A DNA stretch of 64,000 nucleotides from a virus. This document shows positions 907 through 46,255 of this stretch, piece by piece. The notes beneath the pieces were generated by a model. The model made no database searches, was not told where the DNA came from, and saw only the letters and a program-made list of their open reading frames with translations. The first letter of the stretch is position 1. Each line of letters begins with the position of its first letter. The stretch is from positions 24,731 through 88,730 of IMG/VR virus record IMGVR_UViG_3300045988_128894; one strand, 5' to 3'. The position numbers were made by a program, and so were the translations under genes.

Positions 907-1233
907 ATGCGTGCTACTGTTGAAGTGTATGAGAACAATGCAGGCGGTATCTGTGTTGCAGTCTTTGGTCAGAATGGTTTGACGAATCTGTTTGTCGTTA
1001 CTCCTGATGGTAATGAAACAAGAATGACGAGGGCATTCTATCAGGAAGCATCATACGGGTTCCCTGGCGATGATGAATACAATGCAGAAGATTTTTCTGG
1101 TTTGTCCATGGATGATGCTTATGCAGACATCTGCAATAACAACCTGATTGCAGAGTTTTATGATAATCGTGTTGTAAACCTGTATCCGGCAGACATGGGT
1201 ATTGCCGGAATGGAGCTGTTTGGTATGGCTTGA
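907..1233 (+). CDS. hypothetical protein
   Basis: AAGGAG RBS; 108 aa. Confidence 0.5.
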   Translation: MRATVEVYENNAGGICVAVFGQNGLTNLFVVTPDGNETRMTRAFYQEASYGFPGDDEYNAEDFSGLSMDDAYADICNNNLIAEFYDNRVVNLYPADMGIAGMELFGMA

Positions 1234-1315
1234 CCGTATATTCACAAAATTGTCATGAATAAGAAACGTATCAACGCGCTAAAATGCGACGTTAATAAAA
1301 TCTACATTTTAGTGC

Positions 1316-1344
1316 TTGACAGAATCAGTAGTATCCTGTATTCT
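1316..1344 (+). promoter_or_regulatory. sigma70-like promoter (TTGACA-17-TATTCT) containing inverted copy of the 21-bp motif
   Basis: TTGACA 1316-1321, 17-nt spacer, TATTCT 1339-1344; motif GTATCCTGTATTCTATAGCTA 1331-1351. Confidence 0.45.
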
Positions 1345-1359
1345 ATAGCTAGAAAGGGC

Positions 1360-1385
1360 AGTCCGTCATAGGACTTTTATTTTTA
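1360..1385 (+). terminator. rho-independent terminator-like hairpin
   Basis: AGTCC-gtcata-GGACT stem-loop followed by TTTTATTTTT. Confidence 0.5.
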
Positions 1386-1390
1386 CCATA

Positions 1391-1411
1391 TAGCTATACA
1401 ATACAGGATAC
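1391..1411 (+). promoter_or_regulatory. 21-bp conserved motif TAGCTATACAATACAGGATAC (direct copy) just 5' of RBS
   Basis: one of 6 direct copies; followed by AAAAAAGGAG RBS and gene start 1433. Confidence 0.4.
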
Positions 1412-1432
1412 AAAAAAGGAGAGTCAACTGCT

Positions 1433-1981
1433 ATGGCTATGTACAAAACTAAGAAAGATGCAGCTTATGCATGGATTCAGGAGTTTAATGCGATTCCTCA
1501 GAGCGTTATTGAAAAGCTCGCCAAGGTCGATTTGGAAGAGAATGGTGAAGGCATTACCGAAATCACGCCGCCGTCTTGCTGTGATCATGTCTATATCTTT
1601 AGCGGTGACCACTATGGCAAAAATGGTGAGATTCGGAGCTACAACAAAGATGACAACACTTACAAAATTTGTCTCGACGGCACTGGCGAGGAAGTTGATG
1701 TCAGAGAAGATGATTTTGAAGTCGAGCGTGACGACTTCTTTCCGATGTGGGGAACGATGTGGCAGTTTGGCAATTCGTGTGATAACTGGTGGCTTGAAAA
1801 TCATCTTCAGGAAATGGCAGATTGCGGATTCCGTATCTATAAGCAAGAGGATTTTGAGTACGTTTTCGGCATTGATGGTTGTGGCTACGACTTTTACGAA
1901 TCTCATTGGATTCCGCTTTATGAAAAGCGTGGATTCCATTGGGATGATGAGACTGTAAAGGAGCTGGAAGAAAATGCGTAA
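1433..1981 (+). CDS. hypothetical protein
   Basis: 182-aa ORF, AAGGAG RBS, acidic/Trp-rich. Confidence 0.55.
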   Translation: MAMYKTKKDAAYAWIQEFNAIPQSVIEKLAKVDLEENGEGITEITPPSCCDHVYIFSGDHYGKNGEIRSYNKDDNTYKICLDGTGEEVDVREDDFEVERDDFFPMWGTMWQFGNSCDNWWLENHLQEMADCGFRIYKQEDFEYVFGIDGCGYDFYESHWIPLYEKRGFHWDDETVKELEENA

Positions 1982-2213
1982 GACGTTGCTTGAACGACTT
2001 TTGGATGCCGGATATCCGAAAGCAGAAATTTATCATCATATGTCCGACCTTTATGTTTTTGTAACACCGTTGACTACAAAAATTATTTCTGAATGGTGTG
2101 ATGAAAATGGGTATACGATGAACTTTCATTGTGCAAAATTCGTGGATCAGATTACGGGGAACATGATGTACGACTGTGTTTTTCAGTATTATGAGGTGGA
2201 AGAAAATGACTGA
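1974..2213 (+). CDS. hypothetical protein
   Basis: ORF overlapping previous stop; 79 aa. Confidence 0.5.
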   Translation: MRKTLLERLLDAGYPKAEIYHHMSDLYVFVTPLTTKIISEWCDENGYTMNFHCAKFVDQITGNMMYDCVFQYYEVEEND

Positions 2214-2367
2214 TATTCAGGAAAAGATGTGGGACGTGCTGGTTGAGATGTCCGGTGAGGATGTTGCAAGAGCGTTTGCAAATTTCTTTGGTAATCAGCT
2301 TTTGAACGAGGATTTCCATCAGTTTTTGGTTGATGAAGGTTATATGGAAAGCGAGGATGAAGAATGA
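2206..2367 (+). CDS. hypothetical small acidic protein
   Basis: GAGGTGG RBS before ATG 2206 (ATGA overlap with upstream stop). Confidence 0.45.
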   Translation: MTDIQEKMWDVLVEMSGEDVARAFANFFGNQLLNEDFHQFLVDEGYMESEDEE

Positions 2368-2603
2368 TCATTGATTCTATTCTTGACCGTAAGGACGGCA
2401 GACACTACAGTGCTCATGATTTCTATCTTGAGGTCAGGAAATATGAGCGTTTGGGTGTTGGGACAAACGGCGAGGATATTTCTATTGCAATGGATTACGG
2501 TGATAACAAAGATGTGCAGCGTGTTCTGTGTCAGTATATCCAGCGCAATGGATACCCGGCAGATATTGAGGACTACATAAGAAGTCAAGTCTGGGTGGTA
2601 TAA
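2364..2603 (+). CDS. hypothetical protein
   Basis: ATGA start/stop overlap; 79 aa. Confidence 0.5.
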   Translation: MIIDSILDRKDGRHYSAHDFYLEVRKYERLGVGTNGEDISIAMDYGDNKDVQRVLCQYIQRNGYPADIEDYIRSQVWVV

Positions 2604-2703
2604 GCAGCAGATGCTAGGTGATTAGCGGTACTAGGGCAGACATAACCGCTACCAATGCGAAAGCATGAACGAATACACACATGAAAATAAAGGAGATGGT
2701 GCT

Positions 2704-2907
2704 ATGAAAGTGGGGACATTGCTTAATCTGTTTGATGATTGGAACAAATATATCATCATCAACGACAATAGTTTGAATCGTCTGTATAATGCACGAACCA
2801 AAATCTTTGAATTTATGGACGAAAAAGAAAAGCATAAAGATTTACTCGGCAAAGAAATCGTATCGTTTGGACTTTACGACGATGATTTCTGCGTAAGAGT
2901 GAAATAA
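2704..2907 (+). CDS. hypothetical protein
   Basis: AAAGGAGA RBS before ATG 2704 (in frame with longer 2665 ORF). Confidence 0.45.
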   Translation: MKVGTLLNLFDDWNKYIIINDNSLNRLYNARTKIFEFMDEKEKHKDLLGKEIVSFGLYDDDFCVRVK

Positions 2908-2920
2908 AGGAGATAGCATT

Positions 2921-3112
2921 ATGGATAAAGAATATAACATTCCCGAATTATACGACAAGTACGGTCTCAAATATGAGATGAATTATGATGAGATTTGCTC
3001 TTTACTTCTCAAGAGAATTAAGGAAGACCCTAATTTTAACAACTATGTAAGGGCCGACTTGATTGATAAGCTGGGCTGGATTCACGACACGTTAATTGAT
3101 GAAACGTGGTAA
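2921..3112 (+). CDS. hypothetical protein
   Basis: AAAGGAGA RBS. Confidence 0.5.
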   Translation: MDKEYNIPELYDKYGLKYEMNYDEICSLLLKRIKEDPNFNNYVRADLIDKLGWIHDTLIDETW

Positions 3113-3130
3113 ATAAAAGGAGTGTTAGGT

Positions 3131-3421
3131 ATGAAGAAGTTTAATTCGACCTCAAATAAAGGATTCAATATGACTTTTGCAAATGGTATTACTGCAAGCG
3201 TCCAGTGGGGAACTGGGAATTACTGCGATAACTATTTTAGTAAAGACTTCTCTTTCTCAAAAGAAGCAAGTTCTAATACAGCAGAAGTGGCCGCATGGAA
3301 TGAAAACGACGAATGGGTTACAAATAAGTTCTGCGACACCTGTGATGATGTTGCTGGGTATCTCTCCCCAGATGAAGTGTTGCAGTTTTTGAATAGCTGT
3401 GCAAATTACAAAACGGCTTAA
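3131..3421 (+). CDS. hypothetical protein
   Basis: AAAGGAG RBS before ATG 3131. Confidence 0.5.
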   Translation: MKKFNSTSNKGFNMTFANGITASVQWGTGNYCDNYFSKDFSFSKEASSNTAEVAAWNENDEWVTNKFCDTCDDVAGYLSPDEVLQFLNSCANYKTA

Positions 3422-3456
3422 AATCATGCTTTTACAATGACTAGGGAGATTACAGA

Positions 3457-3660
3457 ATGAAACCATTAAGAGATAATCCTATCGAAGAAGGAATAGATGC
3501 TTTCTTTGAAGAAAAACAAAGACTCGAAGAAGAAAAGCAAAAACTCGAAGAAGAAATCAGAGATTACGAACAGGATTATTTGGACCGATATTATGATTGG
3601 TTAGAGGAGGAAGAACAAGAGTGTCGTTTAGAACTTCTTAATGACCTTTACAATGACTAA
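3457..3660 (+). CDS. hypothetical acidic coiled-coil protein
   Basis: GGGAG RBS; E/K-rich repeats. Confidence 0.5.
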   Translation: MKPLRDNPIEEGIDAFFEEKQRLEEEKQKLEEEIRDYEQDYLDRYYDWLEEEEQECRLELLNDLYND

Positions 3661-3672
3661 GGAGGTTACATT

Positions 3673-4104
3673 ATGACCTTTGAACAGTACAAGAAGAATC
3701 GTCCATTCTTTTCTGATCCGTACTATGTGAATATTGTAGAAAGAGTAGAAGAACAGTTCTTCTCTATTCCGGCAGAAAAAATTCACGATACAGAGAACGA
3801 ACTTCCTCATAAACTTAATTTTGGAACTCTCGGTGAATCAAAATATCTTTCTGTTCCTTGTATTGTATTTATGAGTGATGGCACAGAGTATGGAACGTAT
3901 GTTGATATCGCTGGTTATTATTGTTATCAAGATAATCAGTGGTATTTTGATCGCATTGATGTTAGTAGAACGCTGTCTCTGCATGAAGTGTATAGAAGAA
4001 AACCGACAGTTTTGAAGTGGGTTCCGTTGAAGATTGTCTGTGACGAAGACGAAAGAGATGATAGATGTTTTCAATACAATGGAGAACATTATAAAATCAT
4101 ATAA
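3673..4104 (+). CDS. hypothetical protein
   Basis: AAGGAGG RBS; 143 aa. Confidence 0.55.
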   Translation: MTFEQYKKNRPFFSDPYYVNIVERVEEQFFSIPAEKIHDTENELPHKLNFGTLGESKYLSVPCIVFMSDGTEYGTYVDIAGYYCYQDNQWYFDRIDVSRTLSLHEVYRRKPTVLKWVPLKIVCDEDERDDRCFQYNGEHYKII

Positions 4105-4124
4105 ACAAAAGGAGCTAGTACAAT

Positions 4125-4358
4125 ATGACTGAGAAAGATAAACGGATTCTAAAATACGCAATCGATAATCTTGTTCTTAGAGAAATCGAATTATGCAAAG
4201 GAAGTTGTAAAAGCAACCCTGAAAACAAAGCGAACCGTGAACGAGATCGTGAGTTGATTATTTATGGTATTCACAGCGTTTTATATGAGGTTGAACGTCT
4301 TGAAGAACAGGAAAAGGAGATGCTGGAGAAAGTCAAACATGAAGTGGTTCAGTTTTGA
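4125..4358 (+). CDS. hypothetical protein
   Basis: AAAGGAG RBS. Confidence 0.5.
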   Translation: MTEKDKRILKYAIDNLVLREIELCKGSCKSNPENKANRERDRELIIYGIHSVLYEVERLEEQEKEMLEKVKHEVVQF

Positions 4359-4372
4359 TTGGAGTGATAAAA

Positions 4373-18840: not shown

Positions 18841-19467
18841 GTGATTTTCATTAACTCTAATTTGTTAATAAATTGTGAGCAAAGTGTTGCCATTATGTGT
18901 ATAATGTGCTTGCTGGCAGGGAATCTGGTATCGAAGATCAGCCCGGTAATTCAAAATCAGAGCAATTCGTACCTTTATAATAGTAGTCCTCCGGCAGTAA
19001 GTGTTGTGCAGCAAGAGGAAAAGGAACCAGAAGTCATCGTAAAAACTGTTATCGAAACGCGTGTGGTAAACTTCAGTCAGGGAAAGCGCGAACTCACTAA
19101 TGATGAGCGTGCTCTTGCGGAGCAGATCGTTGCTTGTGAAGCAGGTGCTGATAGCCTAGAAGGTCAGATGGCTGTGGCTCAATGTCTTTATGATTCTGCC
19201 GTACTTGATGGTCTAACCATCCAGCAGGTCTTTAAGAAGTATGGTTATAGTTCCTTATATAATAGGAAGGTGACGGCAGAGAACGAATTGGCTGTGTCTA
19301 TGGTGTTTGATTACGGCGCTAAAATTTCAGACAAACCAATTCAATGGTTTGTGACCCCGGCGGCAGCTTCCGGCAGTTGGCACGAGCGCGGAGCAACGTT
19401 CGCTGGACAATTTGGCGCACATAGGTTCTATTACAACGCGGAACTGGTTGTGGATGATGCCGAGTGA
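18841..19467 (+). CDS. cell-wall hydrolase (SleB/CwlJ Hydrolase_2-like) with N-terminal hydrophobic anchor
   Basis: ERALAEQIVACEAGADSLEGQMAVAQCLYDS matches the SleB-type cell wall hydrolase core; N-terminal MCIMCLLAGNLV hydrophobic segment; start codon uncertain. Confidence 0.5.
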   Translation: MIFINSNLLINCEQSVAIMCIMCLLAGNLVSKISPVIQNQSNSYLYNSSPPAVSVVQQEEKEPEVIVKTVIETRVVNFSQGKRELTNDERALAEQIVACEAGADSLEGQMAVAQCLYDSAVLDGLTIQQVFKKYGYSSLYNRKVTAENELAVSMVFDYGAKISDKPIQWFVTPAAASGSWHERGATFAGQFGAHRFYYNAELVVDDAE

Positions 19468-19501
19468 ATGGCATCATCTAAAATTTTAAACTTTTACAAC
19501 A

Positions 19502-19553
19502 ACAAAAAGATGTATAATATATTGACTAAAACAAAAAGATGTGTATAATATAT
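19502..19553 (+). repeat. tandem direct repeat ACAAAAAGATGT(GT)TATAATATAT x2, each carrying a TATAAT box
   Basis: copies at 19502-19522 and 19531-19553 separated by TTGACT. Confidence 0.5.
19522..19549 (+). promoter_or_regulatory. sigma70-like promoter (TTGACT-16-TATAAT, TG-extended)
   Basis: TTGACT 19522-19527, TATAAT 19544-19549. Confidence 0.5.
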
Positions 19554-19591
19554 CTTGAAAGTTGTCTAAATGAGTGGAGGGCGGTGTTTTA

Positions 19592-19918
19592 ATGCGTGAG
19601 AGAAAGGTTCTGAAGGTCATACGAGTTGATGACTTTTTAAAGTACATAAGAAAAAAGAGAGTGTGGGTTTGTTTTGTTTGCAATGGTGTAGATGTTCACA
19701 TGGTCTGTAACAAAATGAACGATGTTGGAACAGAGACACATGGGATCGTTAAAGGCATTGGCTTCTTCGGAAACGAAAGTCATATTGAGCTGCGGCAAGA
19801 ATGCCACGAAGCAAGGAGGATTGAGCTTAGACCGGGCGATAAAGAGAAAGCGTATGAGATGATATTCGATAACACAAGCGTGTTCGTATCAGAGAATCCC
19901 GAGTTGTACGGGCACTAA
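19592..19918 (+). CDS. hypothetical protein (upstream neighbour of mazF-like gene)
   Basis: GGAGGG RBS before ATG 19592; Cys/His-containing; not MazE-like by eye. Confidence 0.4.
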   Translation: MRERKVLKVIRVDDFLKYIRKKRVWVCFVCNGVDVHMVCNKMNDVGTETHGIVKGIGFFGNESHIELRQECHEARRIELRPGDKEKAYEMIFDNTSVFVSENPELYGH

Positions 19919-19937
19919 AAATATTTTCAAAAACCTC

Positions 19938-19966
19938 TTGACTTCTGAAATGGTATCCTGTATAAT
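19938..19966 (+). promoter_or_regulatory. canonical sigma70 promoter (TTGACT-17-TATAAT) containing inverted 21-bp motif
   Basis: TTGACT 19938-19943, TATAAT 19961-19966; GTATCCTGTATAATATAGCTA 19953-19973. Confidence 0.6.
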
Positions 19967-20009
19967 ATAGCTATGGAACGGAGCTACACTATTATAGAGG
20001 AGAAAAACT

Positions 20010-20429
20010 ATGGACAACAATATTGACCCAAAGGTCGGAGAGGTTTGGTTGGTCGATTTGTCCAATGCAACAGGTCATCAGCAGCGCGGTATTCGACCGT
20101 TCGTTGTGACAAGCAACAACAAGCGCAACTTCTTCAGTCCCACAATCAAAGGGAATCCGTTGTCTTCCAGAATATACAAGCGTTCTCCGGTTCATGTTCT
20201 ACTCTCGAAAGAAGACTGCGATTTCCTAGAGGTTGATAGTATCGTTCTTTGTGAAGAGACTGATACACTTAACAAAGGACAGTTCATCAAAAAGCTTGGT
20301 GTCTTGTCTGAGCGTCATATGAATATGATCGCAATGGCAAGATGCAAGGATGAACCGTTCTTACTCGCAGCATTCCTGAGCGGCGTACAACATACTATGG
20401 AATTTCAGAATTTTGCCGCATTTGCTTGA
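20010..20429 (+). CDS. mazF: MazF/PemK/Kid-family endoribonuclease toxin
   Basis: GEVWLVDLSNATGHQQRGIRPFVV almost identical in pattern to Kid/PemK N-terminus GEIWLVSLDPTAGHEQQGTRPVLIV; AGAGGAG RBS. Confidence 0.8.
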   Translation: MDNNIDPKVGEVWLVDLSNATGHQQRGIRPFVVTSNNKRNFFSPTIKGNPLSSRIYKRSPVHVLLSKEDCDFLEVDSIVLCEETDTLNKGQFIKKLGVLSERHMNMIAMARCKDEPFLLAAFLSGVQHTMEFQNFAAFA

Positions 20430-20482
20430 TTTTTTATAAGGGTTAATGGTACACTACATATAATAAGAAGGAGTGTGCCACT

Positions 20483-21409
20483 ATGCTTACTGAAGAGAAA
20501 ATCAACGCTTTTGCCGAAAAGTATTCTGATAGAAGCGGTGAGTTTGTTGTATCGACACTTAACCATGTTATGGATTACGAGGCCGAGCGTGGGTATGAGT
20601 TGTTTGACTTCACAAAAGATGATTTTGTAAAGATGTTTGCCAAATACAATTGGGTGAATTCAAGTCGGTCGTTCAGAAATGTAAAGTCAATAATTACAGG
20701 TTACATCAAAAGTGAGTATCGAGCGAGCATGTATGACTTGGCTGAATTCTCGGAGAGCGACGTGAGTTCAGACAATATGTACGAGGACAAGTATTTTGCG
20801 TCAGCTGATGAGTTTGTTGATTTCTTGGACAAGTATGAAGAACCATATCAGATTCGTATGAACGTGATTGCCGTGCTGTACTGGATTGGTCTTACTTCCG
20901 AAGAGGTTTCTAATCTGACAATTAACGATGTTGATTTTGAATCATGTACTGTTCTGAATAAGACCGGTGTTGACGCGAGATTGATGAATATCATTAAGCA
21001 GTGTTATGAAATGAAACAATACGATGCTCCAAATATGGGAGGATACAGAACGTTTTATGTCATAAATGGTGATTACATTCTTCGCAAAACAGAGGATAGA
21101 ACTGGTGCAGACAGTGATTCAAGAATGTCTACAAATACGATTCATAGTTATTTCACGCGCTTGAATGATATTCTCGAAAGAAGATATCATTCAAAGGCTT
21201 TAGACCGAAGACATCTGACCAGAAACGGCGAGTATGTCAAGGTTTATAACTACTGTAAAACTCATCCAGAATTTAATCTTGCAGAACTTAGTTTCGGAAA
21301 TGGTAAAGATCCTCTTGCGGACATTATCGGAAGAAAGTGCAGCAAGGTTGCCTACATTAGTTTCCGGCAAGGATACAAGGGCTGGATCGAATACTTCCAC
21401 AAAAATTAA
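20483..21409 (+). CDS. hypothetical 308-aa protein
   Basis: AAGGAG RBS; no confident domain call. Confidence 0.55.
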   Translation: MLTEEKINAFAEKYSDRSGEFVVSTLNHVMDYEAERGYELFDFTKDDFVKMFAKYNWVNSSRSFRNVKSIITGYIKSEYRASMYDLAEFSESDVSSDNMYEDKYFASADEFVDFLDKYEEPYQIRMNVIAVLYWIGLTSEEVSNLTINDVDFESCTVLNKTGVDARLMNIIKQCYEMKQYDAPNMGGYRTFYVINGDYILRKTEDRTGADSDSRMSTNTIHSYFTRLNDILERRYHSKALDRRHLTRNGEYVKVYNYCKTHPEFNLAELSFGNGKDPLADIIGRKCSKVAYISFRQGYKGWIEYFHKN

Positions 21410-21413
21410 AAAC

Positions 21414-21437
21414 AGGGGGCTTCAGCCCCTTGATTTT
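21414..21437 (+). terminator. rho-independent terminator
   Basis: GGGGC-ttca-GCCCC hairpin followed by TTGATTTT. Confidence 0.65.
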
Positions 21438-21444
21438 AACATTG

Positions 21445-21465
21445 TAACTATATAACACAGGATAC
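21445..21465 (+). promoter_or_regulatory. 21-bp motif copy TAACTATATAACACAGGATAC (direct); TTGATT 16 nt upstream of its TATAAC
   Basis: direct copy; possible -35 TTGATT 21429-21434. Confidence 0.4.
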
Positions 21466-21497
21466 AGAAAATAGTATTTGAATGGAGAATGATAACA

Positions 21498-23564
21498 ATG
21501 TCTGATTTCAAGAAATTTCGTGCACTGCTGCAGGACCACTTCAATGAGATGGTGAAGGGCGAAAACCCTCTGTTTATCACCGATGCAGACGAGGATGAAC
21601 TGTATAATCTGTATCTCGACAGCTTCCCAGCTGGCACGAATGAGTTGTTCCGTAAGCGGCGCGAGTATGACTGTTCCTGCTGCCGCCGTTTCGTAAAGAA
21701 CATCGGTAAGCTGGTTTCCTTTATGGATGGTCAGATGGTTACCGTCTGGGATTTCGATACCAAGTCCGATGTTTATCAGCCGGTTGTGGATGCGCTGGCT
21801 GCCTATGTGAAAACCTGCGCTGTTGTGAACCCGTATTACGTCAGCCGCAATATGATCTCTGATAGCAAGTTTGGCACTGAGATGAACTATGAGTATGACG
21901 CTGATCATAAGGCGGTTCATACCTGGGATCATTTCGTTGTCGAGATTCCTCAGCGGTTCATTGTGCGTCCCGATGACGTACCTACCAAGATGGCTCAGTG
22001 GCGTGATTCCGCCAATGTGTTCAAGCGCTCTCTGGAGGAGCTAACCATGGATGCCGTGGACACCGTGCTTGAGCTGATTGCGCAGAACAGCCTGTATCGC
22101 GGTAAGGAGTTTGAATCTCTGGTTCGTGGCTTCAAAATCGATAAGCAAGTGTATGATCGTCTGCCTGATGAAAAGAAGTCCGCTTATGTTTGGATGGCTC
22201 CCGGCGGAGCTTCGATGAACCGGCTTCGCATCCGCAATACGGCAATCGGTACTCTGCTGGTGAACCTGAGCGAGGGCATGGACGTGGATGCTGCTGTGTC
22301 TGCGTTTGAGGCCATTGTTGCTCCCGCCAACTATAAGCGTCCTAAGGCGATTTTTACCAAGAAGATGCTGGAAGACGCACAGAAAACCGTCACTGAGTTG
22401 GGCTATATGAACAGTCTGGGTCGCCGGTTTGCTACTCTGGACGACATCACCGTAAATAACGTTTTATTCTGTAACCGAGACGCAGCCCCTCGTATTACTG
22501 GCGCTGTGAATCCGTTTGAAGCAATGGCGAAGACTGTCGCAATCGATCCTAAGAAGTTCGGCCGCGCAGAGGAAATCGGTATTGATAAGTTTATCAAGGA
22601 CGTGCTGCCCACCGCGACTGGTCTGGAACTGTTTATGGAGAATCGGTTTGAGAAGAATATGACGTCTCTGATTGCTCCGCAGGATAAGAACGCGCCGTCT
22701 ATGTTCAAGTGGGCGAATGGTTTCAGTTGGGCGTATACGGGTAACGTGGCTGACAGCCAGATCCGTGAGAACGTCAAGAATGCAGGCGGTAAGGTTGATG
22801 GCGTGTTGCGTTTCTCTATTCAGTGGAACGATAAGCAGTGCGAGTGGGATGAAAATGACCTTGATGCCCACTGTGTTGAACCGAACGACGTTGAGATCTA
22901 TTTTGGCAACAAACGAGATTGGAGTACTGGTGGCAATCTGGATGTAGATATTATTCATCCTGATCGCGATGAGGCCGCTGTTGAGAATATTACATGGCCT
23001 GACATCAAAAAGATGAAGGATGGTAAATACGAGTTCTTTGTTCATTGCTTCTCTAACCGTGGCGGCAAAACCGGCTTCCGCGCAGAGATTGAATTTGATG
23101 GTCAAATCTACTCCTTCAATTACAATATTCCGCTGCGTCAGACTCAGAATGTTTCTGTTGCTACTGTTGTGTTGAATGATGGGCAGTTTACTATTAAGGA
23201 ACATCTCAATAGTTCTACTTCTTCCCGTGAAATCTGGGGTGTGAATTCCAATCAGTTTGTACCGGTGTCCGTAGCAATGTATTCTCCGAACTACTGGGAC
23301 GAGCAGAGTGGTAACGGTAATCGTCATTACTTCTTCATGCTCAAGGATTGTGTAAACCCTGAAAAGCCCAATGGATTCTACAATGAATTCCTGAAGGCGG
23401 AACTGCTACAGCATAAGCGAGTATTCGAGGCTCTTGGTTCTCAGATGGCAGTTCAGTCGGTAGATGACCAGCTGTCCGGCGTTGGGTTCTCTGAGACGAA
23501 ACATGATTCCTTTGTTGTCAAGGTTCAGGGCGCTACTGAGCGGGTTCTGAAAGTTGTTATTTAA
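21498..23564 (+). CDS. large hypothetical protein (689 aa)
   Basis: GGAGA RBS before ATG 21498; CSCC cluster near N-terminus; no recognisable catalytic motifs. Confidence 0.55.
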   Translation: MSDFKKFRALLQDHFNEMVKGENPLFITDADEDELYNLYLDSFPAGTNELFRKRREYDCSCCRRFVKNIGKLVSFMDGQMVTVWDFDTKSDVYQPVVDALAAYVKTCAVVNPYYVSRNMISDSKFGTEMNYEYDADHKAVHTWDHFVVEIPQRFIVRPDDVPTKMAQWRDSANVFKRSLEELTMDAVDTVLELIAQNSLYRGKEFESLVRGFKIDKQVYDRLPDEKKSAYVWMAPGGASMNRLRIRNTAIGTLLVNLSEGMDVDAAVSAFEAIVAPANYKRPKAIFTKKMLEDAQKTVTELGYMNSLGRRFATLDDITVNNVLFCNRDAAPRITGAVNPFEAMAKTVAIDPKKFGRAEEIGIDKFIKDVLPTATGLELFMENRFEKNMTSLIAPQDKNAPSMFKWANGFSWAYTGNVADSQIRENVKNAGGKVDGVLRFSIQWNDKQCEWDENDLDAHCVEPNDVEIYFGNKRDWSTGGNLDVDIIHPDRDEAAVENITWPDIKKMKDGKYEFFVHCFSNRGGKTGFRAEIEFDGQIYSFNYNIPLRQTQNVSVATVVLNDGQFTIKEHLNSSTSSREIWGVNSNQFVPVSVAMYSPNYWDEQSGNGNRHYFFMLKDCVNPEKPNGFYNEFLKAELLQHKRVFEALGSQMAVQSVDDQLSGVGFSETKHDSFVVKVQGATERVLKVVI

Positions 23565-24042: not shown

Positions 24043-24699
24043 ATGAAAAAAATCGAAACGGTGTTCAATCGTGACATCGAAGGTACTAAAAAGTTGATTA
24101 TCGGTGATTTCCGCAGTGAGACCATCGAGTTCCTACAAAATAACGAGTGGGAATTTACTGAGAAAGTGGATGGCACGAATGTGCGTGTTTGCTGGGACGG
24201 TCACAAAGTCAGCTTTGCTGGACGAACTGAACGTGCCGAACTTCCTAAGAATTTGGTGGATGCACTAAATAAAATTTTCGGTACTTCTGAAGCAGAGGAA
24301 TTGTTTGAACAGACTTACGGTGATAAAGAAGTAATCCTCTTTGGAGAGGGTTATGGTGGCAAAATTCAAGGATGCGGTCATGGATACCGACCTGACGAGT
24401 GGTTCATCTTGTTCGATGTCCTGATTGGTGATAACTACCAGAGTAGAGAGTGGGTCAAAAAGACTGCTCAGATGTTTGGCATCCAAGCGGTTCCTGTTTT
24501 ATTCACAGGGACGATTCGAGACGGTATCAAGTTTGTATGTCGGCATCCGAAGTCTACGATTTCGATTGGTGGCATTTATATGGAAGGTCTAGTTGGTCGG
24601 CCAAAAGTTGAATTGAAAGACCGTAGAGGTAATCGAGTAATTGTCAAAATCAAGTGGAATGATTTCAAGGATATCGCTGATACGCTTGGTAATGAGTAA
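24043..24699 (+). CDS. small nucleotidyltransferase-fold polynucleotide ligase (RNA-ligase-like, KxDG)
   Basis: motif I EKVDGTN, motif IV-like GEGYGGK, motif V IVKIKW; 218 aa minimal ligase; sits immediately 5' of tRNA array. Confidence 0.5.
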   Translation: MKKIETVFNRDIEGTKKLIIGDFRSETIEFLQNNEWEFTEKVDGTNVRVCWDGHKVSFAGRTERAELPKNLVDALNKIFGTSEAEELFEQTYGDKEVILFGEGYGGKIQGCGHGYRPDEWFILFDVLIGDNYQSREWVKKTAQMFGIQAVPVLFTGTIRDGIKFVCRHPKSTISIGGIYMEGLVGRPKVELKDRRGNRVIVKIKWNDFKDIADTLGNE

Positions 24700-24738
24700 T
24701 TAAGACATTTTCTTCCTCCGAAAATGCCCTGCGCGGGG

Positions 24739-24768: not shown

Positions 24769-24856
24769 GCCGCAGTGATGGAGTGACATACATTTCCCGC
24801 TTAAACCGGGACGCCTGAAACACGGATCGTGGGTTTGAATCCCACCTGCGGCACCA
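24769..24856 (+). tRNA. tRNA-Leu (anticodon TAA), type II with long variable arm, CCA encoded
   Basis: acceptor GCCGCAG/CTGCGGC, anticodon stem TCCCG/CGGGA with loop CTTAAAC, T-arm GTGGG-TTTGAAT-CCCAC, A73+CCA; D-stem only 3 bp. Confidence 0.65.
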
Positions 24857-24859
24857 TAT

Positions 24860-24933
24860 CCAGAATGTAGTGTAATGGCAGCACGCTGCGTTTGGGACGC
24901 AGAAGAGCGATTCGAATTCGACATTTTGGACCA
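24860..24933 (+). tRNA. tRNA-like, anticodon TGG (Pro) but degenerate T-stem; possibly pseudo-tRNA
   Basis: acceptor CCAGAAT/ATTTTGG (one G-U), perfect anticodon arm CTGCG-TTTGGGA-CGCAG, canonical TTCGAAT T-loop but T-stem only 3 bp, CCA encoded. Confidence 0.4.
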
Positions 24934-25028
24934 GTGGAGTATTCCACTTGCTTTTCATGAATACCTTCCTATTATTCTTGGCTCTCCAAAAAACGGAGCA
25001 GTAGGACGCAGCAAGCCAAGTTACATAA

Positions 25029-25118
25029 TGAGGGTTCGCCAAGTGGTAAATGGCATCTGGCTTTGACCCAGACAGCGTGCTTTATAGCCGATCGTCGGTT
25101 CGATCCCGACACCCTCAA
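25029..25118 (+). tRNA. type II tRNA (long variable arm, A73) with anticodon TTG
   Basis: 7/7 acceptor TGAGGGT/ACCCTCA, D-arm GCCA-agtggtaaa-TGGC, anticodon arm TCTGG-CTTTGAC-CCAGA, ~21-nt variable arm, T-arm GTCGG-TTCGATC-CCGAC; no CCA. Confidence 0.6.
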
Positions 25119-25123
25119 TTTAT

Positions 25124-25212
25124 GGACACGTGATGGAATCGCAGACATGAAAGATTTAGGCTCTTTTGCCGTTAACAGCGGTGTGCCCGTTCAAATCGGG
25201 TCGTGTCCACCA
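25124..25212 (+). tRNA. tRNA-Leu (anticodon TAG), type II, CCA encoded
   Basis: acceptor GGACACG/CGTGTCC, anticodon arm AAAGA-TTTAGGC-TCTTT, variable arm with GCCG/CGGT stem, T-arm GCCCG-TTCAAAT-CGGGT, A73+CCA. Confidence 0.65.
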
Positions 25213-25316
25213 TTATCAACTTATGGTTGCGTACCGTTTTGTTGATCTCCTTTGACCACTATTATTCCCAGCTCGCCAGTGATGGTGCAGTAGTGCTTTG
25301 CAAGCTGGGTTTTCAT

Positions 25317-25391
25317 GCAGCGGTCGTACAACGGCTAGTACATCAGCCTTCCAAGCTGAGGATGAGGTTTCGACTACCTTTCGCTGCTCCA
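25317..25391 (+). tRNA. tRNA-Gly (anticodon TCC)
   Basis: acceptor GCAGCGG/TCGCTGC, D-arm GTAC-aacggcta-GTAC, anticodon arm TCAGC-CTTCCAA-GCTGA, T-arm GAGGT-TTCGACT-ACCTT, CCA encoded. Confidence 0.7.
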
Positions 25392-25579
25392 GTCTTGTAT
25401 GGGTAGGATCTTTAGCGGTCAGATCCGGCCGCGCCTGTTCAAGATACCACCCCGAAAGGGGCGAGATATAGGAAATGTGCATCGCTGTTATTCCTTCCTC
25501 GTCTATATGGTATAGATGCAATAGTGTTTTATAAGGAAGGTTCCCAGTTGAATAGTTGCAGCTGTTTGACTGGTAATAT

Positions 25580-25655
25580 GGAATAGTAGCTCAGTTGGTT
25601 AGAGCCGACAACTTATAATTGTCAGACGCGAGTTCAAATCTCGACTATTCCACCA
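25580..25655 (+). tRNA. tRNA-Ile (anticodon TAT)
   Basis: acceptor GGAATAG/CTATTCC, D-arm GCTC-agttggtta-GAGC, anticodon arm GACAA-CTTATAA-TTGTC, T-loop TTCAAAT, CCA encoded. Confidence 0.7.
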
Positions 25656-25758
25656 GCCCGAAAGGGTGTACATAGAATCTGCTAGAACTTTTGTTTTATA
25701 AGCGTTGAAATAATATGACGTTGATACGTCTATTGTTTTTCGCTTATTCTCTGAGATT

Positions 25759-25779
25759 TAGCTATGTAACACAGGATAC
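25759..25779 (+). promoter_or_regulatory. 21-bp motif copy TAGCTATGTAACACAGGATAC (direct) upstream of methyltransferase gene
   Basis: followed by AAAAGGAGG RBS. Confidence 0.4.
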
Positions 25780-25806
25780 GAAAAGGAGGTGGTTTGGTGA
25801 AACATT

Positions 25807-27261
25807 ATGGAAGTATTTGCGAGATTGATGGTTCTAAGATTGAACCTGTCTCGTGTATCACTGGTGGTTCACCTTGTTAGCCAAGATCTTTCTATTGCCG
25901 GTAAGCGGGCAGGTTTGGCTGGAGAACGGTCTGGTCTATTTATGGAAATGATTCGTGTGATAAAAGAAATGAGGGATACCACCAATGGAGAATATCCAAA
26001 ATTTGCAATCTGGGAAAATGTTAGAGGAGCACTCTCCTCAAACAACGGAGAAGACTTCCGATGTGTCTTGGAAGAATTTGCACACATCGTCGAAGCAGAC
26101 GCTACAATTCCTAAACCTTCGGAAAAAGGTGGAAAATGGTCTAAATCCGGCGCAATTTCCGGTAATGGATGGTCTTTGGCATGGAGACTCTTCGATGCTC
26201 AATACTGGGGAGTGCCCCAACGTCGTCAAAGAATCGCGCTTGTCATGGATTTTGGAGGACAACGTGCCGCAAAGATATTATTTGAGCGCACGGGCGTGCC
26301 AGGGAATTCTGACGAGAGCATCCCGACGTGGCAAGGTGCTGCCAGAATTGCTGAAAAATGCATTGTTGGAAATGATCGAGTGGTGGGAGAAAAAAGCTTT
26401 TGTATCGTCGGAAACATGATTGACAGAGAAACCAACATGAATGGGACTGGTGTAAAAGAAGATACTGCTTTCACTATAAACACTATTGACCGTAATGCTG
26501 TTGCCTACACTTTAAAGATTCGTTCAGGATGCGAAGGTGGTGGCAAAGGCGCACTGGTACAAATCGAGAAGAGCGCAACGCTTTCTACATTGCAAGATCA
26601 AACGTTAATTTGCTTGGCAGACAACACCTCTTTACATAATTCAAAACAAAAGATTTCGCCGGTGGTGTTTGAGAGTCACAGTCAGGATGCTCGATACACT
26701 CAACAGGGCGACACAAGTCCGGCTTGTACGGCTCAATGGGGGACTGGTGGCAATAATATGCCGCTTGTTGCTGAAAAGAAAACCTTTGCAATGCAACGCA
26801 TTGGTGAATACAAGGAAAGTGAACAAGCTAGTACGATGAAATCTCGTGACTACAAGGATGCTACTGACTTGATTGCAGAGAAGGAAACGAAGAATCTGCA
26901 ATGGATTGTTCGTCGCCTGACTCCTGTCGAGTGTGAACGACTTCAAGGGTTCCCTGATGGATGGACTGATATTGGCGAGTGGGTTGATGAGAATGGTAAA
27001 AAGCACAAACCAGCTGATTCTCCTCGTTACAAGGCGCTCGGCAATTCGATTGCATTGCCTCAGTGGTATTGGATTTTCCAGAAAATGAAGCCGTATATCG
27101 GTGAGAATCCTACGCTTGGCAGTCTTTTTGATGGAATCGGTGGCTTTCCGCTTGTCTTTGAAAGTACGTATGGTGATGGTACTGCTATCTGGGGATCTGA
27201 AATTGAACCGTTCTGCGTTGCAGTAACTAAGAAGCATTTTCCAGAAAAGCAAGGAGGATAA
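25807..27261 (+). CDS. C5-cytosine DNA methyltransferase with permuted/scrambled motif order and disrupted PCQ motif (probably non-functional as annotated)
   Basis: ORF contains motif IV tail QDLSIAGKRAG, motif VI FAIWENV, motif VIII QYWGVPQRRQR, motif IX RLTPVECERLQGFPDGW, motif X LGNSIALP and then motif I LFDGIGGFPL at its C-terminus; GGSPC of motif IV lies upstream (25863-25877) in another frame and is followed by TAG. Confidence 0.55.
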   Translation: MEVFARLMVLRLNLSRVSLVVHLVSQDLSIAGKRAGLAGERSGLFMEMIRVIKEMRDTTNGEYPKFAIWENVRGALSSNNGEDFRCVLEEFAHIVEADATIPKPSEKGGKWSKSGAISGNGWSLAWRLFDAQYWGVPQRRQRIALVMDFGGQRAAKILFERTGVPGNSDESIPTWQGAARIAEKCIVGNDRVVGEKSFCIVGNMIDRETNMNGTGVKEDTAFTINTIDRNAVAYTLKIRSGCEGGGKGALVQIEKSATLSTLQDQTLICLADNTSLHNSKQKISPVVFESHSQDARYTQQGDTSPACTAQWGTGGNNMPLVAEKKTFAMQRIGEYKESEQASTMKSRDYKDATDLIAEKETKNLQWIVRRLTPVECERLQGFPDGWTDIGEWVDENGKKHKPADSPRYKALGNSIALPQWYWIFQKMKPYIGENPTLGSLFDGIGGFPLVFESTYGDGTAIWGSEIEPFCVAVTKKHFPEKQGG

Positions 27262-27262
27262 T

Positions 27263-27805
27263 TTGCCAGAAAATAAAGGATATTTAACAGCTGACCGATC
27301 TGCGGTAGGCGATGAGCGATACACACCGGTTTACGCGGTTATTCCATTGCTTGAATTTGCCCCCCCGTCGAGTAAAACAGTGATTTGGTGTCCGTTTGAT
27401 AAAGAGTGGTCTGCCTTTGTGCAGGTGTTCAGAAATGCTGGATATAAAGTAGAATATAGCCACATTGATAACGGACAAGATTTCTTTACATACGAACCGG
27501 AATATTGGGATATTATGATTTCAAACCCTCCTTTTAGTAGGAAGGATGAAGTATTGCGTAGAGCCTATGAGCTTAAAAAGCCGTTTGCTCTACTACTTCC
27601 TGCAAATAGTATTCAGGGTAAGACACGATTTGACATCTTCAAAAATGATGTACAGATGCTGTGTTTTGATTCTCGAATCGGATTTATGGACCCTGAACAT
27701 ACTGACAGCCCTGTTGAGGGAGTTTCGTTTGGAAGTGCGTACTTCTGTAGAAATTTTCTTCCCAGTAAGTTAGAGTTGCGGAAACTCGATAAGAAAATCT
27801 CATAA
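27263..27805 (+). CDS. putative DNA N6-adenine methyltransferase (phage Dam-like, NPPF motif), TTG start
   Basis: YTPVYAVIPLLEF...WCPFDKE...DIMISNPPFS; AAGGAGG RBS 5 nt before TTG. Confidence 0.5.
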   Translation: MPENKGYLTADRSAVGDERYTPVYAVIPLLEFAPPSSKTVIWCPFDKEWSAFVQVFRNAGYKVEYSHIDNGQDFFTYEPEYWDIMISNPPFSRKDEVLRRAYELKKPFALLLPANSIQGKTRFDIFKNDVQMLCFDSRIGFMDPEHTDSPVEGVSFGSAYFCRNFLPSKLELRKLDKKIS

Positions 27806-30200: not shown

Positions 30201-30221
30201 TAGCTAAGTAATACAGGATAC
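30201..30221 (+). promoter_or_regulatory. 21-bp motif copy TAGCTAAGTAATACAGGATAC (direct)
   Basis: followed by ATAAGGAG RBS and ATG 30237. Confidence 0.4.
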
Positions 30222-30236
30222 ATAAGGAGTTTAGTT

Positions 30237-44750: not shown

Positions 44751-44775
44751 CAATTATGTGCGTATCCTGTATAAT
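44747..44775 (+). promoter_or_regulatory. canonical sigma70 promoter (TTGACA-17-TATAAT) containing inverted 21-bp motif
   Basis: TTGACA 44747-44752, TATAAT 44770-44775; GTATCCTGTATAATATAGCTA 44762-44782. Confidence 0.6.
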
Positions 44776-44788
44776 ATAGCTACAAAAA

Positions 44789-44820
44789 GTCTCCATCCCG
44801 GAGGCTTAAAATTCTCTCTT
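44789..44820 (+). terminator. terminator-like hairpin GTCTCC-atccc-GGAGGC plus T-rich tail
   Basis: 6-bp stem with one G-U, followed by TTAAAATTCTCTCTTT. Confidence 0.4.
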
Positions 44821-44841
44821 TAGCTATACAATACAGGATAC
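44821..44841 (+). promoter_or_regulatory. 21-bp motif copy TAGCTATACAATACAGGATAC (direct, identical to 1391 copy)
   Basis: followed by GAAGGAAATGG and tiny ORF. Confidence 0.4.
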
Positions 44842-44850
44842 GAGAAGGAA

Positions 44851-44865
44851 ATGGCTTGCTCGTAA
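44851..44865 (+). other. 4-codon leader ORF (MACS) whose stop lies in the loop of a terminator hairpin
   Basis: GAAGGAAA RBS, ATG GCT TGC TCG TAA embedded in hairpin. Confidence 0.25.
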
Positions 44866-44884
44866 CGACAAGCCTTTCTTTATT
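44853..44884 (+). terminator. rho-independent terminator GGCTTGCTCG-taa-CGACAAGCC + TTTCTTTATT
   Basis: 9-bp stem (one bulge), T-rich tail. Confidence 0.6.
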
Positions 44885-44888
44885 AGCT

Positions 44889-44909
44889 ATAACTATATAA
44901 CACAGGATA
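44889..44909 (+). promoter_or_regulatory. 21-bp motif copy TAACTATATAACACAGGATAC (direct, identical to 21445 copy)
   Basis: followed by GCAAGGAGG RBS and ligase gene. Confidence 0.4.
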
Positions 44910-44923
44910 CGCAAGGAGGCTTT

Positions 44924-46255
44924 ATGACAGATAAGGAACTCATAGGTAAGCTTGATGCAATGGTTAAGGCATTGCAAAAAGCAAAGAAGAAGACGGACAA
45001 GACCCGCATTTTGCTGGATGCACGAAAAGATTTTGGAGATGAGGCTGACGAGCTGATGGCATTCTTCCGATTCCTGCTTGACCCGGCGATTGTGACTGGC
45101 CTGTCTGATGCAAAAATCAATAAGAAGGTAACTGCAAAGCCGGATATCGAAATTCAATATCTCAGCTGTGGATACCTTTATATTATGGGCGCTGGGCACA
45201 ATACCGGCTCTGATGCATCCATCGCAACAATCCAGAATTATTTACATAAAAATCATGAATACGAAGAGTTTCTGAAGCGACTGTTCACTAAGAACTTGCC
45301 GATTGGAGTCGAGGCAGCGACCATCAATAAAGTGTACGGCGAAGAGATTATTCCAGTCTGGGAGGTCCAGCAGGGATATCCGATTGATAAGGTAAAGCTG
45401 AAGGATGGCATTTGGTTCAGTTTGAGCCAGAAGATGAATGGCAATAGGGGGACTCTATATCGTGGAGATTTAATTTCTCGTCAGGCACAGAAATTTGAAG
45501 GTCTTGACCATATTAAGAATGACCTGCTCTCTTTGTATGATGGCGATGCGACGAGGCGAGATTCTTTGGTATTTGACGGAGAACTTATCTACAAGAATCC
45601 CGAAGGAATGTCGGACGGAGAGGCGTTTCGTTTCGGAACTGGCCTACTTAATTCTGACAACAAGGACAAGACTGAAATCAAATTTGTGATTTTTGATGTG
45701 ATTCCTGTTGTAGAGTTCGACCGTGGGAAATGCGCGGTTCCGTATCGGACGCGCCGTGAATGGTTAAATTGTCTTCGCGCAGAGATTACTCGCAAGAACC
45801 TTGAAAACATCGAAATTGTTCCAATGGTATATGAAGGTACTGACCAGAGTGTGATCCCGAAGTGGCTTGATTATGCTGTCGAACACGATTGGGAAGGTCT
45901 TATGTTGAACACGGACATCCCTTATCGTCGGGCTCGTCACAACGGATGTCTCAAAATTAAGCGTTTTTACACTGTTGATCTACGAATCACAGCGATTGAA
46001 GAAGGTCAGAACCGTCTGGCTGGTACGATGGGCGCTCTGGTTGTTGATTACAAAGGTAACGAGATTCGTGTTGGTTCCGGTTTTGATGATGCTACGAGAG
46101 CTGCTGTGTGGGCAAATCCTGATAATTACATCGGCAAGATTGTGGAGTGTAAATATAAAGAGGTCACGATGGATAAAAAGACCGGCCTTGAGTCTCTGCA
46201 ATTCCCGACGTTTGTAAGATTTAGAGATGACAAGAACGAGGTGTCTTATGGCTGA
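44924..46255 (+). CDS. ATP-dependent DNA ligase
   Basis: motif I KMNGNRG (KxDG-type), motif III FDGELIY, IIIa FVIFDV, IV EGLMLN, V LKIKRF; 443 aa. Confidence 0.7.
   Translation: MTDKELIGKLDAMVKALQKAKKKTDKTRILLDARKDFGDEADELMAFFRFLLDPAIVTGLSDAKINKKVTAKPDIEIQYLSCGYLYIMGAGHNTGSDASIATIQNYLHKNHEYEEFLKRLFTKNLPIGVEAATINKVYGEEIIPVWEVQQGYPIDKVKLKDGIWFSLSQKMNGNRGTLYRGDLISRQAQKFEGLDHIKNDLLSLYDGDATRRDSLVFDGELIYKNPEGMSDGEAFRFGTGLLNSDNKDKTEIKFVIFDVIPVVEFDRGKCAVPYRTRREWLNCLRAEITRKNLENIEIVPMVYEGTDQSVIPKWLDYAVEHDWEGLMLNTDIPYRRARHNGCLKIKRFYTVDLRITAIEEGQNRLAGTMGALVVDYKGNEIRVGSGFDDATRAAVWANPDNYIGKIVECKYKEVTMDKKTGLESLQFPTFVRFRDDKNEVSYG

Follow-up and report, generated by a model that had tools for sequence, protein, structure and literature searches.

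A phage mazF gene with a conserved C-terminal extension is paired with a gene for a putative MrpR/SroF-like repressor in a family of large gut phages

Introduction

What does a phage do with a toxin gene that has no recognisable antitoxin beside it, and what might keep such a toxin in check? This question is raised by a locus in an uncultivated virus (IMG/VR record IMGVR_UViG_3300045988_128894), of which we analyzed a stretch of 64,000 nucleotides (positions 24,731 to 88,730 of the record), called the window below. An initial annotation, made from the letters alone, had described the open reading frame (ORF) at 20010-20429 as a solo MazF/PemK-type toxin gene with a strong promoter of its own. 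It had suggested host shutoff, superinfection exclusion or anti-defence as possible roles, or else a novel cognate antitoxin encoded by the small ORF upstream. We find that this mazF gene is the promoter-proximal member of a conserved pair, so that "solo" is misleading. The second gene, at 20483-21409, encodes a protein resembling MrpR (YopR/SroF), the master repressor of the Bacillus subtilis prophage SPbeta (PMC10516654). We describe the anatomy and conservation of the locus with high confidence; the interpretations placed on them are of graded strength. Phage MazF-like proteins without an annotated antitoxin have already been catalogued, and the new element is the gene pair of an extended MazF and an MrpR-like repressor, which a full-text literature search did not find described.

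Results

The phage MazF retains the catalytic residues and carries a conserved extension

The 20010-20429 product matched the MazF/PemK family in Pfam (PF02452) over residues 8-108 with 69.3 bits (cut-off 23.1; expectation value (E) 3.8e-19), and phrog_1936 ("MazF-like growth inhibitor") with an E of 1.6e-21. Its closest solved relatives are the MazF proteins of Staphylococcus aureus and B. subtilis. An AlphaFold2 model with a predicted local distance difference test score (pLDDT) of 85 adopted the SH3-like barrel of the MazF/CcdB fold, and the top 50 Foldseek matches of this model were all MazF structures, with template modelling (TM) scores of 0.72-0.87, normalised to the target. In HMMER alignments, R29 and S52 of the phage protein were placed opposite R25 and T48 of B. 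subtilis MazF, which we take to be the catalytic pair; Simanshu and colleagues reportedly described in 2013 the roles of Arg25 and Thr48 in catalysis by this enzyme. R29 was invariant and position 52 always Ser or Thr, both in 22 diverse sequences of the core group defined below and in the 79 intact alleles of 80 close genomes. The assignment to the MazF/PemK family made in the initial annotation is thus confirmed by profile, fold and active site, and the catalytic residues, whose absence from an alignment would have spoken against it, are retained.

Comparison with other MazF proteins revealed a C-terminal extension of about 30 residues that is specific to the subfamily of the window protein. 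Within this segment, A110, R111, D114-E115-P116-F117-L118, F122 and F132 are invariant among the 22 homologues, and its motif can be written as A-x-A-R-x2-D-E-P-F-L. Taken together, the alignments show a MazF-family protein whose catalytic dyad is intact and which has a conserved C-terminal segment of about 30 residues, and this extension is, as judged from sequence comparison, the diagnostic mark of the subfamily. The retained catalytic residues argue for an active ribonuclease (RNase).

A different explanation would be that the MazF fold was recruited as a non-catalytic cofactor of the MrpR-like protein, acting as a co-repressor or adaptor through the extension and not as a toxin. Toxins serve as co-repressors in classical type II systems, the locus offers no recognisable antitoxin, and the pairing with a DNA-binding protein is conserved. 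In some distant extended members (P0217 and P0175), moreover, the catalytic Arg is replaced by His. The retention of R29 and Ser/Thr52 throughout the core sequences and intact alleles would, however, be hard to explain without catalysis, and we consider a purely non-catalytic role very unlikely.

Beyond the single-domain proteins, many chains of 235-470 amino acids (e.g., P0136, P0137, P0139, P0148 and P0152) contain two to four MazF domains, and these tandem fusions ranked among the best matches to the extended-MazF profile in a representative search.

Extended MazF proteins are encoded next to MrpR-like genes

The same locus was found on 80 IMG/VR contigs, many of them 125-141 kb long, and MazF homologues with 59-99% identity are encoded on metagenomic contigs of 125-130 kb. 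As a core set we used eight sister clades (the window, L001, L002, L005, L094, L096, L097 and L098). The gene order was the same in all eight, namely a small ORF of 102-127 amino acids, MazF with 138-149 amino acids and an MrpR-like protein with 308-348 amino acids. In an exhaustive profile search, the MazF proteins of the core group fell into one 50%-identity cluster. More distant MazF proteins aligned along the C-terminal extension, and the genomic context could be recovered for five of these. The MrpR-like gene was located directly 3' of the extended mazF in four cases (P0133/L104, P0138/L106, P0135/L107 and the P0175-like member of L109), and in the fifth (P0162/L108) a single gene with a DGQHR domain was inserted between the two. 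A profile of the eight core partners matched all five distant partners with E values of 1e-26 to 1e-42. All 13 clades examined thus have a gene for an extended MazF beside, or one gene away from, an MrpR-like gene, and the pairing persists at MazF identities as low as about 30%. Scans started from distant MazF proteins returned nothing in two of four cases. The inserted L108 gene (2981-4222) encodes a 413-residue protein with the DGQHR motif that resembled DndB/ParB by eye.

The MazF-like proteins of the phages Perkons, PMBT24, NatCom_13861 and Satyr (118-120 amino acids) are devoid of the extension, and neither an integrase nor a repressor gene is annotated next to them. Perkons ORF41, the sole control neighbour that was run against the MrpR-like profile, gave no match. 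The occurrence of the extension coincides exactly with that of an MrpR-like neighbour, which makes the MrpR-like protein our first candidate for a partner of MazF.

This pairing bears on the view that MazF is an antitoxin-less phage RNase for host shutoff, competitor exclusion or anti-defence that shares only a promoter with the MrpR-like gene; T4 RegB, a toxin-fold RNase in temporal control, can be likened to it. MazF-like proteins without an annotated antitoxin are indeed common in Firmicute phages, lytic ones included (74 records, and phrog_1936), the promoter at mazF is strong and of an early type, and neighbouring RNA-repair genes and a tRNA cluster could protect phage translation. What such a role leaves unexplained is the pairing of the extended subfamily with MrpR-like genes in all 13 clades as well as the repeated regulatory element at the mazF promoter described below, and we regard it as unlikely. 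The conserved context points to a lysis-lysogeny or early regulatory circuit in preference to the shutoff, exclusion or anti-defence roles first suggested.

The MrpR-like proteins

The product of 20483-21409 matched phrog_5830 ("integrase"), and the domain PF22823 (MrpR_C_cat) is on record for proteins 97% identical to it. The N-terminal domain of the MrpR family, MrpR_N_CB (PF22822), was matched by seven of nine clade representatives with a best E of 1.2e-8, and the partner from L106 reached 41.9 bits, which is above the cut-off. The window protein gave no match to the recombinase catalytic domain PF00589, which is matched by the product of a nearby integrase-like gene (13870-14709) with an E of 6.5e-16. 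By analogy with MrpR, we infer that the MrpR-like protein probably acts as a phage repressor.

mazF and the MrpR-like gene are predicted to form one transcription unit

The consensus TTGACT-17-TATAAT promoter at mazF (PmazF) and the tandem promoter-repeat region in front of the small ORF, two 29-bp repeats, were both present as initially described (Table 1). In 29 sequence variants of PmazF, the -35 region, the -10 region and a 21-bp element overlapping the latter are conserved, and the spacer between the two hexamers varies. Six of the seven sister clades whose upstream regions were read (L001, L002, L005, L094, L097 and L098) likewise have a strong consensus-like promoter between the small ORF and mazF; upstream of mazF in L096 only a weaker site was found, TTGATT with an extended -10-like sequence. 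The spacer between mazF and the MrpR-like gene is 53 nt long in the window and 50-77 nt across the clades, and in L104 the two genes overlap by 17 nt. Neither a terminator nor a consensus or otherwise strong promoter is present between the two window genes, and the plus strand from 17139 to 21414 has no terminator-like site. These features show a predicted transcription unit in which PmazF drives both mazF and the downstream MrpR-like gene and which ends at the 21414 terminator.

Table 1. Features of the mazF locus in the window.
Feature	Position	Strand	Description
Tandem 29-bp repeats	19493-19550	+	Two copies, 5' of the small ORF; second copy is a TTGACT-16-TATAAT promoter (19522-19549)
Small ORF	19592-19918	+	108 amino acids; predicted all-beta YojF/PH-like fold; without family assignment
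PmazF	19938-19966	+	Sigma-70-type promoter; TTGACT 19938-19943, 17 nt, TATAAT 19961-19966; 11/12 to consensus
21-bp element	19953-19973	+	GTATCCTGTATAATATAGCTA; overlaps -10 of PmazF; candidate operator of the MrpR-like protein
Imperfect inverted repeat	19956-20002	+	Arms 19956-19967 and 19990-20001; 3' arm overlaps the mazF ribosome-binding site
mazF	20010-20429	+	MazF/PemK-family endoribonuclease homologue, 139 amino acids; core residues 8-108, extension about 109-139
Spacer block	20447-20464	+	TGGTACACTACATATAAT in the window; consensus TGGTATYCTTACATAT; UACAU at 20455-20459
MrpR/SroF-like gene	20483-21409	+	Tyrosine-recombinase-fold protein, 308 amino acids; putative phage repressor; directly 3' of mazF
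Intrinsic terminator-like hairpin	21414-21430	+	Closes the predicted mazF-mrpR unit; first plus-strand terminator after 17139
21-bp element, further copy	1331-1351	+	
21-bp element, further copy	1391-1411	-	
21-bp element, further copy	21445-21465	-	
21-bp element, further copy	25759-25779	-	
21-bp element, further copy	30201-30221	-	
21-bp element, further copy	44762-44782	+	
21-bp element, further copy	44821-44841	-	
21-bp element, further copy	44890-44910	-	

Of the two repeats upstream of the small ORF, the second scores 11/12 against the consensus and the first is a weaker site (TTTACA-16-TAATAT). About 88 related loci share the repeat core, with TTGAC(T/G/C) and TATAAT retained in the second copy. 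A by-eye reading of the region upstream of the small ORF showed no LexA (Cheo) box.

The ribosome-binding site of mazF (GAGGAG, 19997-20002) is overlapped by a partial inverted copy of the 21-bp element. For the inverted repeat formed in this way, 95.7% of the cells were paired, with one compensatory pair and a folding z-score of -2.1; 19 of 500 shuffles reached the observed score, and the covariation support is weak. The pairing is maintained, and the repeat could be an RNA hairpin occluding the ribosome-binding site in read-through transcripts or a DNA dyad. An Rfam search over 19300-21600 detected no RNA antitoxin and no known riboregulator.

Among the genes of the locus, mazF is under the strongest constraint

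Across the eight core clades, identity amounts to 56-79% for MazF and 21-32% for the MrpR-like protein, and similarity of the small ORF product is mostly undetectable. The same ranking was obtained with 79 close genomes, in which the mean amino acid divergence was 2.6% for MazF, 9.3% for the MrpR-like protein and 16.4% for the small ORF product. The ratios of nonsynonymous to synonymous substitution rates (dN/dS) were 0.035, 0.09 and 0.14, respectively. Of the three genes, mazF is by far the most strongly conserved. An intact mazF is present in 79 of the 80 IMG/VR genomes; the exception, L032, has a frameshift in mazF (about 3530-3946), possibly an assembly error, and an intact MrpR-like gene. 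A decayed mazF was also seen at 2501-2795 in L109, a 43.8-kb viral contig (IMGVR_UViG_2788500064_000001), where it lies by IS3-type transposase ORFs and the MrpR-like gene is intact. The possibility that mazF is a moron was rejected, as it is a core, strongly selected gene of the whole phage family. A co-evolution test with the 79 close genomes gave no signal, with weak distance correlations (0.09-0.18); as recombination is rampant in these genomes, the test is uninformative with regard to the partners.

The small ORF upstream of mazF is hypervariable

An ORF of 102-156 amino acids is always located immediately 5' of mazF, which is the usual position of an antitoxin gene. It might therefore encode a novel, fast-evolving MazF antitoxin, in a type II or three-gene module serving prophage addiction, abortive infection or superinfection exclusion, to which the MrpR-like gene would be a mere neighbour. 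Its dN/dS, set against that of mazF, would agree with this explanation, since antitoxins typically outpace toxins in evolution. No terminator precedes mazF, so that read-through would co-express both genes. The slot may also hold very divergent homologues: a 125-residue phage protein without sequence similarity to the 19592-19918 product has the same predicted fold.

Several results stand against an antitoxin in this position. The small ORFs of nine clades gave no match to any antitoxin family, and the predicted fold of the window product is not of the AbrB, ribbon-helix-helix (RHH) or Phd type and has no disordered acidic tail. Profile searches and predicted fold likewise exclude it as a MazE, PemI, AbrB or RHH antitoxin, and PADLOC returned zero defence-system matches. 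The isoelectric points of the small ORF products range from 5.1 to 9.1, and their charge shows no consistent signature of an acidic DNA mimic or antitoxin. In addition, the consensus promoter between the small ORF and mazF would yield toxin without antitoxin. Identical MazF alleles occur with small-ORF alleles that are merely 81-83% identical (distance correlation 0.18), and the slot lacks detectable homology across most clades even though their MazF proteins are well conserved. The earlier statements that mazF is not coupled to a MazE-, PemI- or Kis-like gene and that the small ORF is not a canonical antitoxin thus hold, also in the search against antitoxin families that had been proposed as a check. 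The alternative that the small ORF encodes a novel antitoxin is weakened by the lack of similarity in the slot and by the separating promoter, and we consider it improbable.

Candidate functions of the 19592-19918 product are those of an anti-MazF protein or an antirepressor, the latter because SPbeta-like phages have specific SroF-Sar pairs. In three clades, a small gene of the HTH_3 (Cro/CI) type is located just 5' of the small ORF (L096, 2543-2806, minus strand; L098, 2612-2833, minus strand; L097, 2460-2684, plus strand). This gene, which is divergent in two of the three, suggests a second, classical switch beside the MazF/MrpR-like pair.

A repeated 21-bp element is a candidate operator

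An 11-mer from the -10 region of PmazF recurs in the window and could be extended to a 21-bp element (GTATCCTGTRTWNYWTAGYTA), of which nine true copies are present compared to 2.6 expected for the degenerate pattern. The three plus-strand copies (1331, 19953 and 44762) overlap the -10 regions of strong TTGAC(A/T) promoters. The repeated element SPBRE is bound by MrpR of SPbeta, also where it occurs in the promoter of the mrpR operon (PMC10516654), and monomers of SroF recognise an operator of 24-26 bp (bioRxiv 10.1101/2025.11.27.690993). The 21-bp element is, by analogy, a candidate operator of the MrpR-like protein. In L002 a different repeat (TTTGTTATTATATA) occupies the same promoter position, with an inverted copy before the gene that follows the MrpR-like gene, and L097 has yet another one (TAATATATGTTTACCGC) at this position. 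The presence of distinct repeats at one promoter position, in clades whose MrpR-like proteins have diverged, is what would be expected of operators co-diversifying with their repressor.

The 21-bp element is also part of composite leaders at 1316-1432, 44747-44930, 21414-21488, 25717-25806 and 30201-30236. At 1331 and 44762 these consist of a promoter with a plus-strand copy, a short terminator-like hairpin, a minus-strand copy and a ribosome-binding site. A mini-ORF of four codons (MACS, 44850-44864) overlaps a second terminator hairpin, which is followed by a minus-strand copy before the ligase gene. The composite leaders look like attenuation, antitermination or repeated roadblock control of early genes. 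The gene right after the mazF-mrpR unit (21489-23564), preceded by a minus-strand copy, encodes a 691-residue protein that matches phrog_1735 (E 3e-257) and is annotated as DUF8224 in relatives.

A conserved block with a UACAU motif lies between mazF and the MrpR-like gene

The spacer between the two genes contains the block TGGTATYCTTACATAT in all eight core clades, and outside this block the spacer is not conserved among them. Both variants of the close clade keep the block, which is lacking in the distant clades L104, L106 and L107. It reads as an extended -10 region, TGnTATYCT, and includes UACAU, the cleavage site of B. subtilis MazF (bioRxiv 10.1101/2023.04.27.537455). By chance, a UACAU would be expected in a given spacer with a probability of 0.05-0.13. 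The block could be a weak promoter for the repressor gene only, an auto-cleavage site that uncouples both cistrons, or both.

The phage family and neighbouring genes

The locus lies in the early or lysogeny-control region of phages of about 125-140 kb that probably infect anaerobic gut Firmicutes and are distantly SPbeta-like. The window encodes an AAA_24 protein, a primase-like protein, a RecJ-like DHH protein, the DNA polymerase III alpha subunit, a RecD-like helicase, a ligase, ThyX and NrdD/NrdG, and YorF is annotated in relatives. A megablast search against cultured phages found no close relative, and the polymerase III of the window is about 34%, at most 35%, identical to those of the nearest cultured phages. 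Among the larger ORFs of the window there was no arbitrium gene (AimR, AimP or AimX) and no homologue of YosL or MazE.

RNA-repair genes are located near the operon (window, 24043-24699 and 24769-25655; L002, 6591-8855; L006-L010, 7893-10106; L097, 5433-7420). In the window, an RNA ligase gene is followed by six tRNA genes (Leu-UAA, Pro-UGG, Gln-UUG, Leu-UAG, Gly-UCC and Ile-UAU), and in many relatives a gene for a kinase-phosphoesterase-ligase of about 740 residues (Pnkp-like) lies directly 3' of the MrpR-like gene. MazF cleavage leaves 5'-OH and cyclic-phosphate ends, and Pnkp-like and ligase enzymes can heal and seal such ends. Just 5' of the triad, L002 and L003 have genes for NAMPT, a phosphoribosyltransferase-like protein and an NAD synthase (1099-4361), possibly an NAD-regeneration set for counter-defence. 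Further genes of the window (17847-18077, 25807-27805 and 59954-60691) include one for restriction alleviation (Lar-like) and three or more for DNA methyltransferases (C5, EcoRI-like N6 and N6/N4), which is consistent with a heavy investment in anti-restriction.

Discussion

A proposed role for MazF in a repressor circuit

We propose that the locus is an SPbeta-like lysis-lysogeny or early-control module in which a phage-owned RNase is co-expressed with, and tied to, a repressor circuit, a reading to which we attach about an even chance. The mazF-mrpR operon would be autoregulated via the 21-bp element, as is the yopM-yopR (sro) operon of SPbeta. MazF would be an active, sequence-specific RNase and would add an arm at the RNA level to this switch or to early temporal control, cutting host transcripts, phage lytic transcripts or both while the repressor shuts the promoters. 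A precedent for such an arm is the role of host MazF in phage phi3T, whose lysogeny requires the enzyme; phi3T encodes two inhibitors of host MazF, AimX and YosL, as well as phi3T_93, which releases it from MazE (PMC10769878). The phage MazF might be restrained by low, autoregulated expression together with a protein partner, most plausibly the MrpR-like protein docked on the C-terminal extension, with the product of the variable small ORF as second candidate. Through the UACAU block, MazF might uncouple its own message from that of the repressor, unless this block serves as a weak repressor-only promoter.

Several observations weigh against this proposal. With respect to the repressor, the window protein itself matched MrpR_N_CB only weakly (21.4 bits, below the cut-off of 27; E 4e-4), a tblastn search of cultured phages found no match for it, and a sequence search of the PDB did not either. 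The adjacency of mazF and mrpR could reflect co-regulation only. With respect to the operator, each of the six minus-strand copies of the 21-bp element immediately precedes a ribosome-binding site and usually follows a terminator-like hairpin, and the function of the element could instead be that of a promoter or leader sequence specific to the phage. With respect to lysogeny, no relative of the MazF, and thus no prophage copy, turned up when 185,579 species-representative genomes were scanned in two pattern-based searches, so that lysogeny can only be inferred. No AimR-like match was present among the larger ORFs of the 64-kb window, a search that left aside small peptides and the roughly half of the genome outside the window. 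With respect to the RNase, no k-mer, UACAU included, was significantly avoided in the mazF-mrpR transcripts of the eight clades after correction for multiple testing. UACAU occurred twice in mazF (3.0 expected) and eight times in mrpR (9.8 expected). Finally, the RNA-contact loops differ from those of B. subtilis MazF (GHQQRG vs GSEQGG and CEETD vs LEQIR), so that UACAU specificity cannot be assumed for the phage enzyme.

MazF was reported to spare the sroF operon and to promote lysogeny in the SPbeta system (bioRxiv 10.1101/2025.11.27.690993). A corresponding self-sparing mazF-mrpR operon was considered for the phage family and found to be unsupported by the k-mer test; as no k-mer is avoided in these transcripts, there is no sign of it.

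A stronger form of our proposal is that the MrpR-like repressor itself neutralises the phage MazF via the C-terminal extension. We advance it tentatively and think it rather less probable than its converse. To our knowledge, no tyrosine-recombinase-fold protein of 300 residues is an established antitoxin, and a full-text literature search did not find a recombinase-fold antitoxin. If this were true, one protein would restrain both the lytic promoters and the RNase, and loss of the repressor, through an antirepressor or loss of the prophage, would free both at once. MazF control of the lysis-lysogeny decision would then be ancestral and phage-owned, and not a host hijack specific to phi3T.

Independently of this, a large and abundant family of uncultivated gut phages has a constrained MazF of its own, predicted to be in one transcription unit with an MrpR/SroF-type repressor. 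With its recombinase fold, this repressor clearly qualifies as a candidate for a novel type of toxin partner. A functional coupling of the two genes would link toxin-antitoxin logic directly to the prophage switch and would account for many phage mazF genes that seem to lack an antitoxin.

Comparison with known systems

The phage MazF shares the Pfam family and fold with the MazF proteins of B. subtilis and S. aureus (30-36% identity, TM score about 0.8), the catalytic Arg is kept and the Thr to Ser exchange is conservative. The arrangement of the genes differs from these bacterial modules: there is no upstream MazE of the RHH or AbrB type, mazF has its own promoter, and it is followed by a gene for a 308-residue recombinase-fold protein. 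It differs equally from canonical MazEF, PemIK and Kis-Kid systems, as no adjacent, co-transcribed MazE/PemI or RHH antitoxin was found and a promoter separates the small ORF from mazF. In the type II systems HigBA, MqsRA and HicAB the usual order is reversed, with the gene of the toxin preceding that of an antitoxin that acts as a DNA-binding autorepressor. The phage locus resembles these in that a gene for a DNA-binding protein follows the toxin gene and in that a candidate operator overlaps the promoter. With the phage genes of PHROG 1936 (Perkons, NatCom gut phages, Satyr/Maenad and PMBT24) it has in common a phage-borne MazF without an annotated antitoxin; those proteins are shorter, at 118-120 residues, and differ in lacking both the extension and an annotated integrase or repressor neighbour.

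The closest parallels are with SPbeta and phi3T. These comprise a repressor (putative in the gut phage family) of the recombinase-fold type with an MrpR_N_CB-like domain, a MazF RNase that would be involved together with the repressor, a long element repeated at several promoters including that of the repressor operon itself, and similar downstream replication genes (RecJ-like DHH, primase-like, AAA_24 and polymerase III alpha, with YorF in relatives). Sequence relatedness to SPbeta is very low, and the likeness to MrpR is seen only at the profile level. In contrast to SPbeta and phi3T, MazF is here encoded by the phage, inside the repressor operon and immediately 5' of the repressor gene, so that the locus may represent a self-contained and genetically tractable version of a MazF-lysogeny circuit of the phi3T type.

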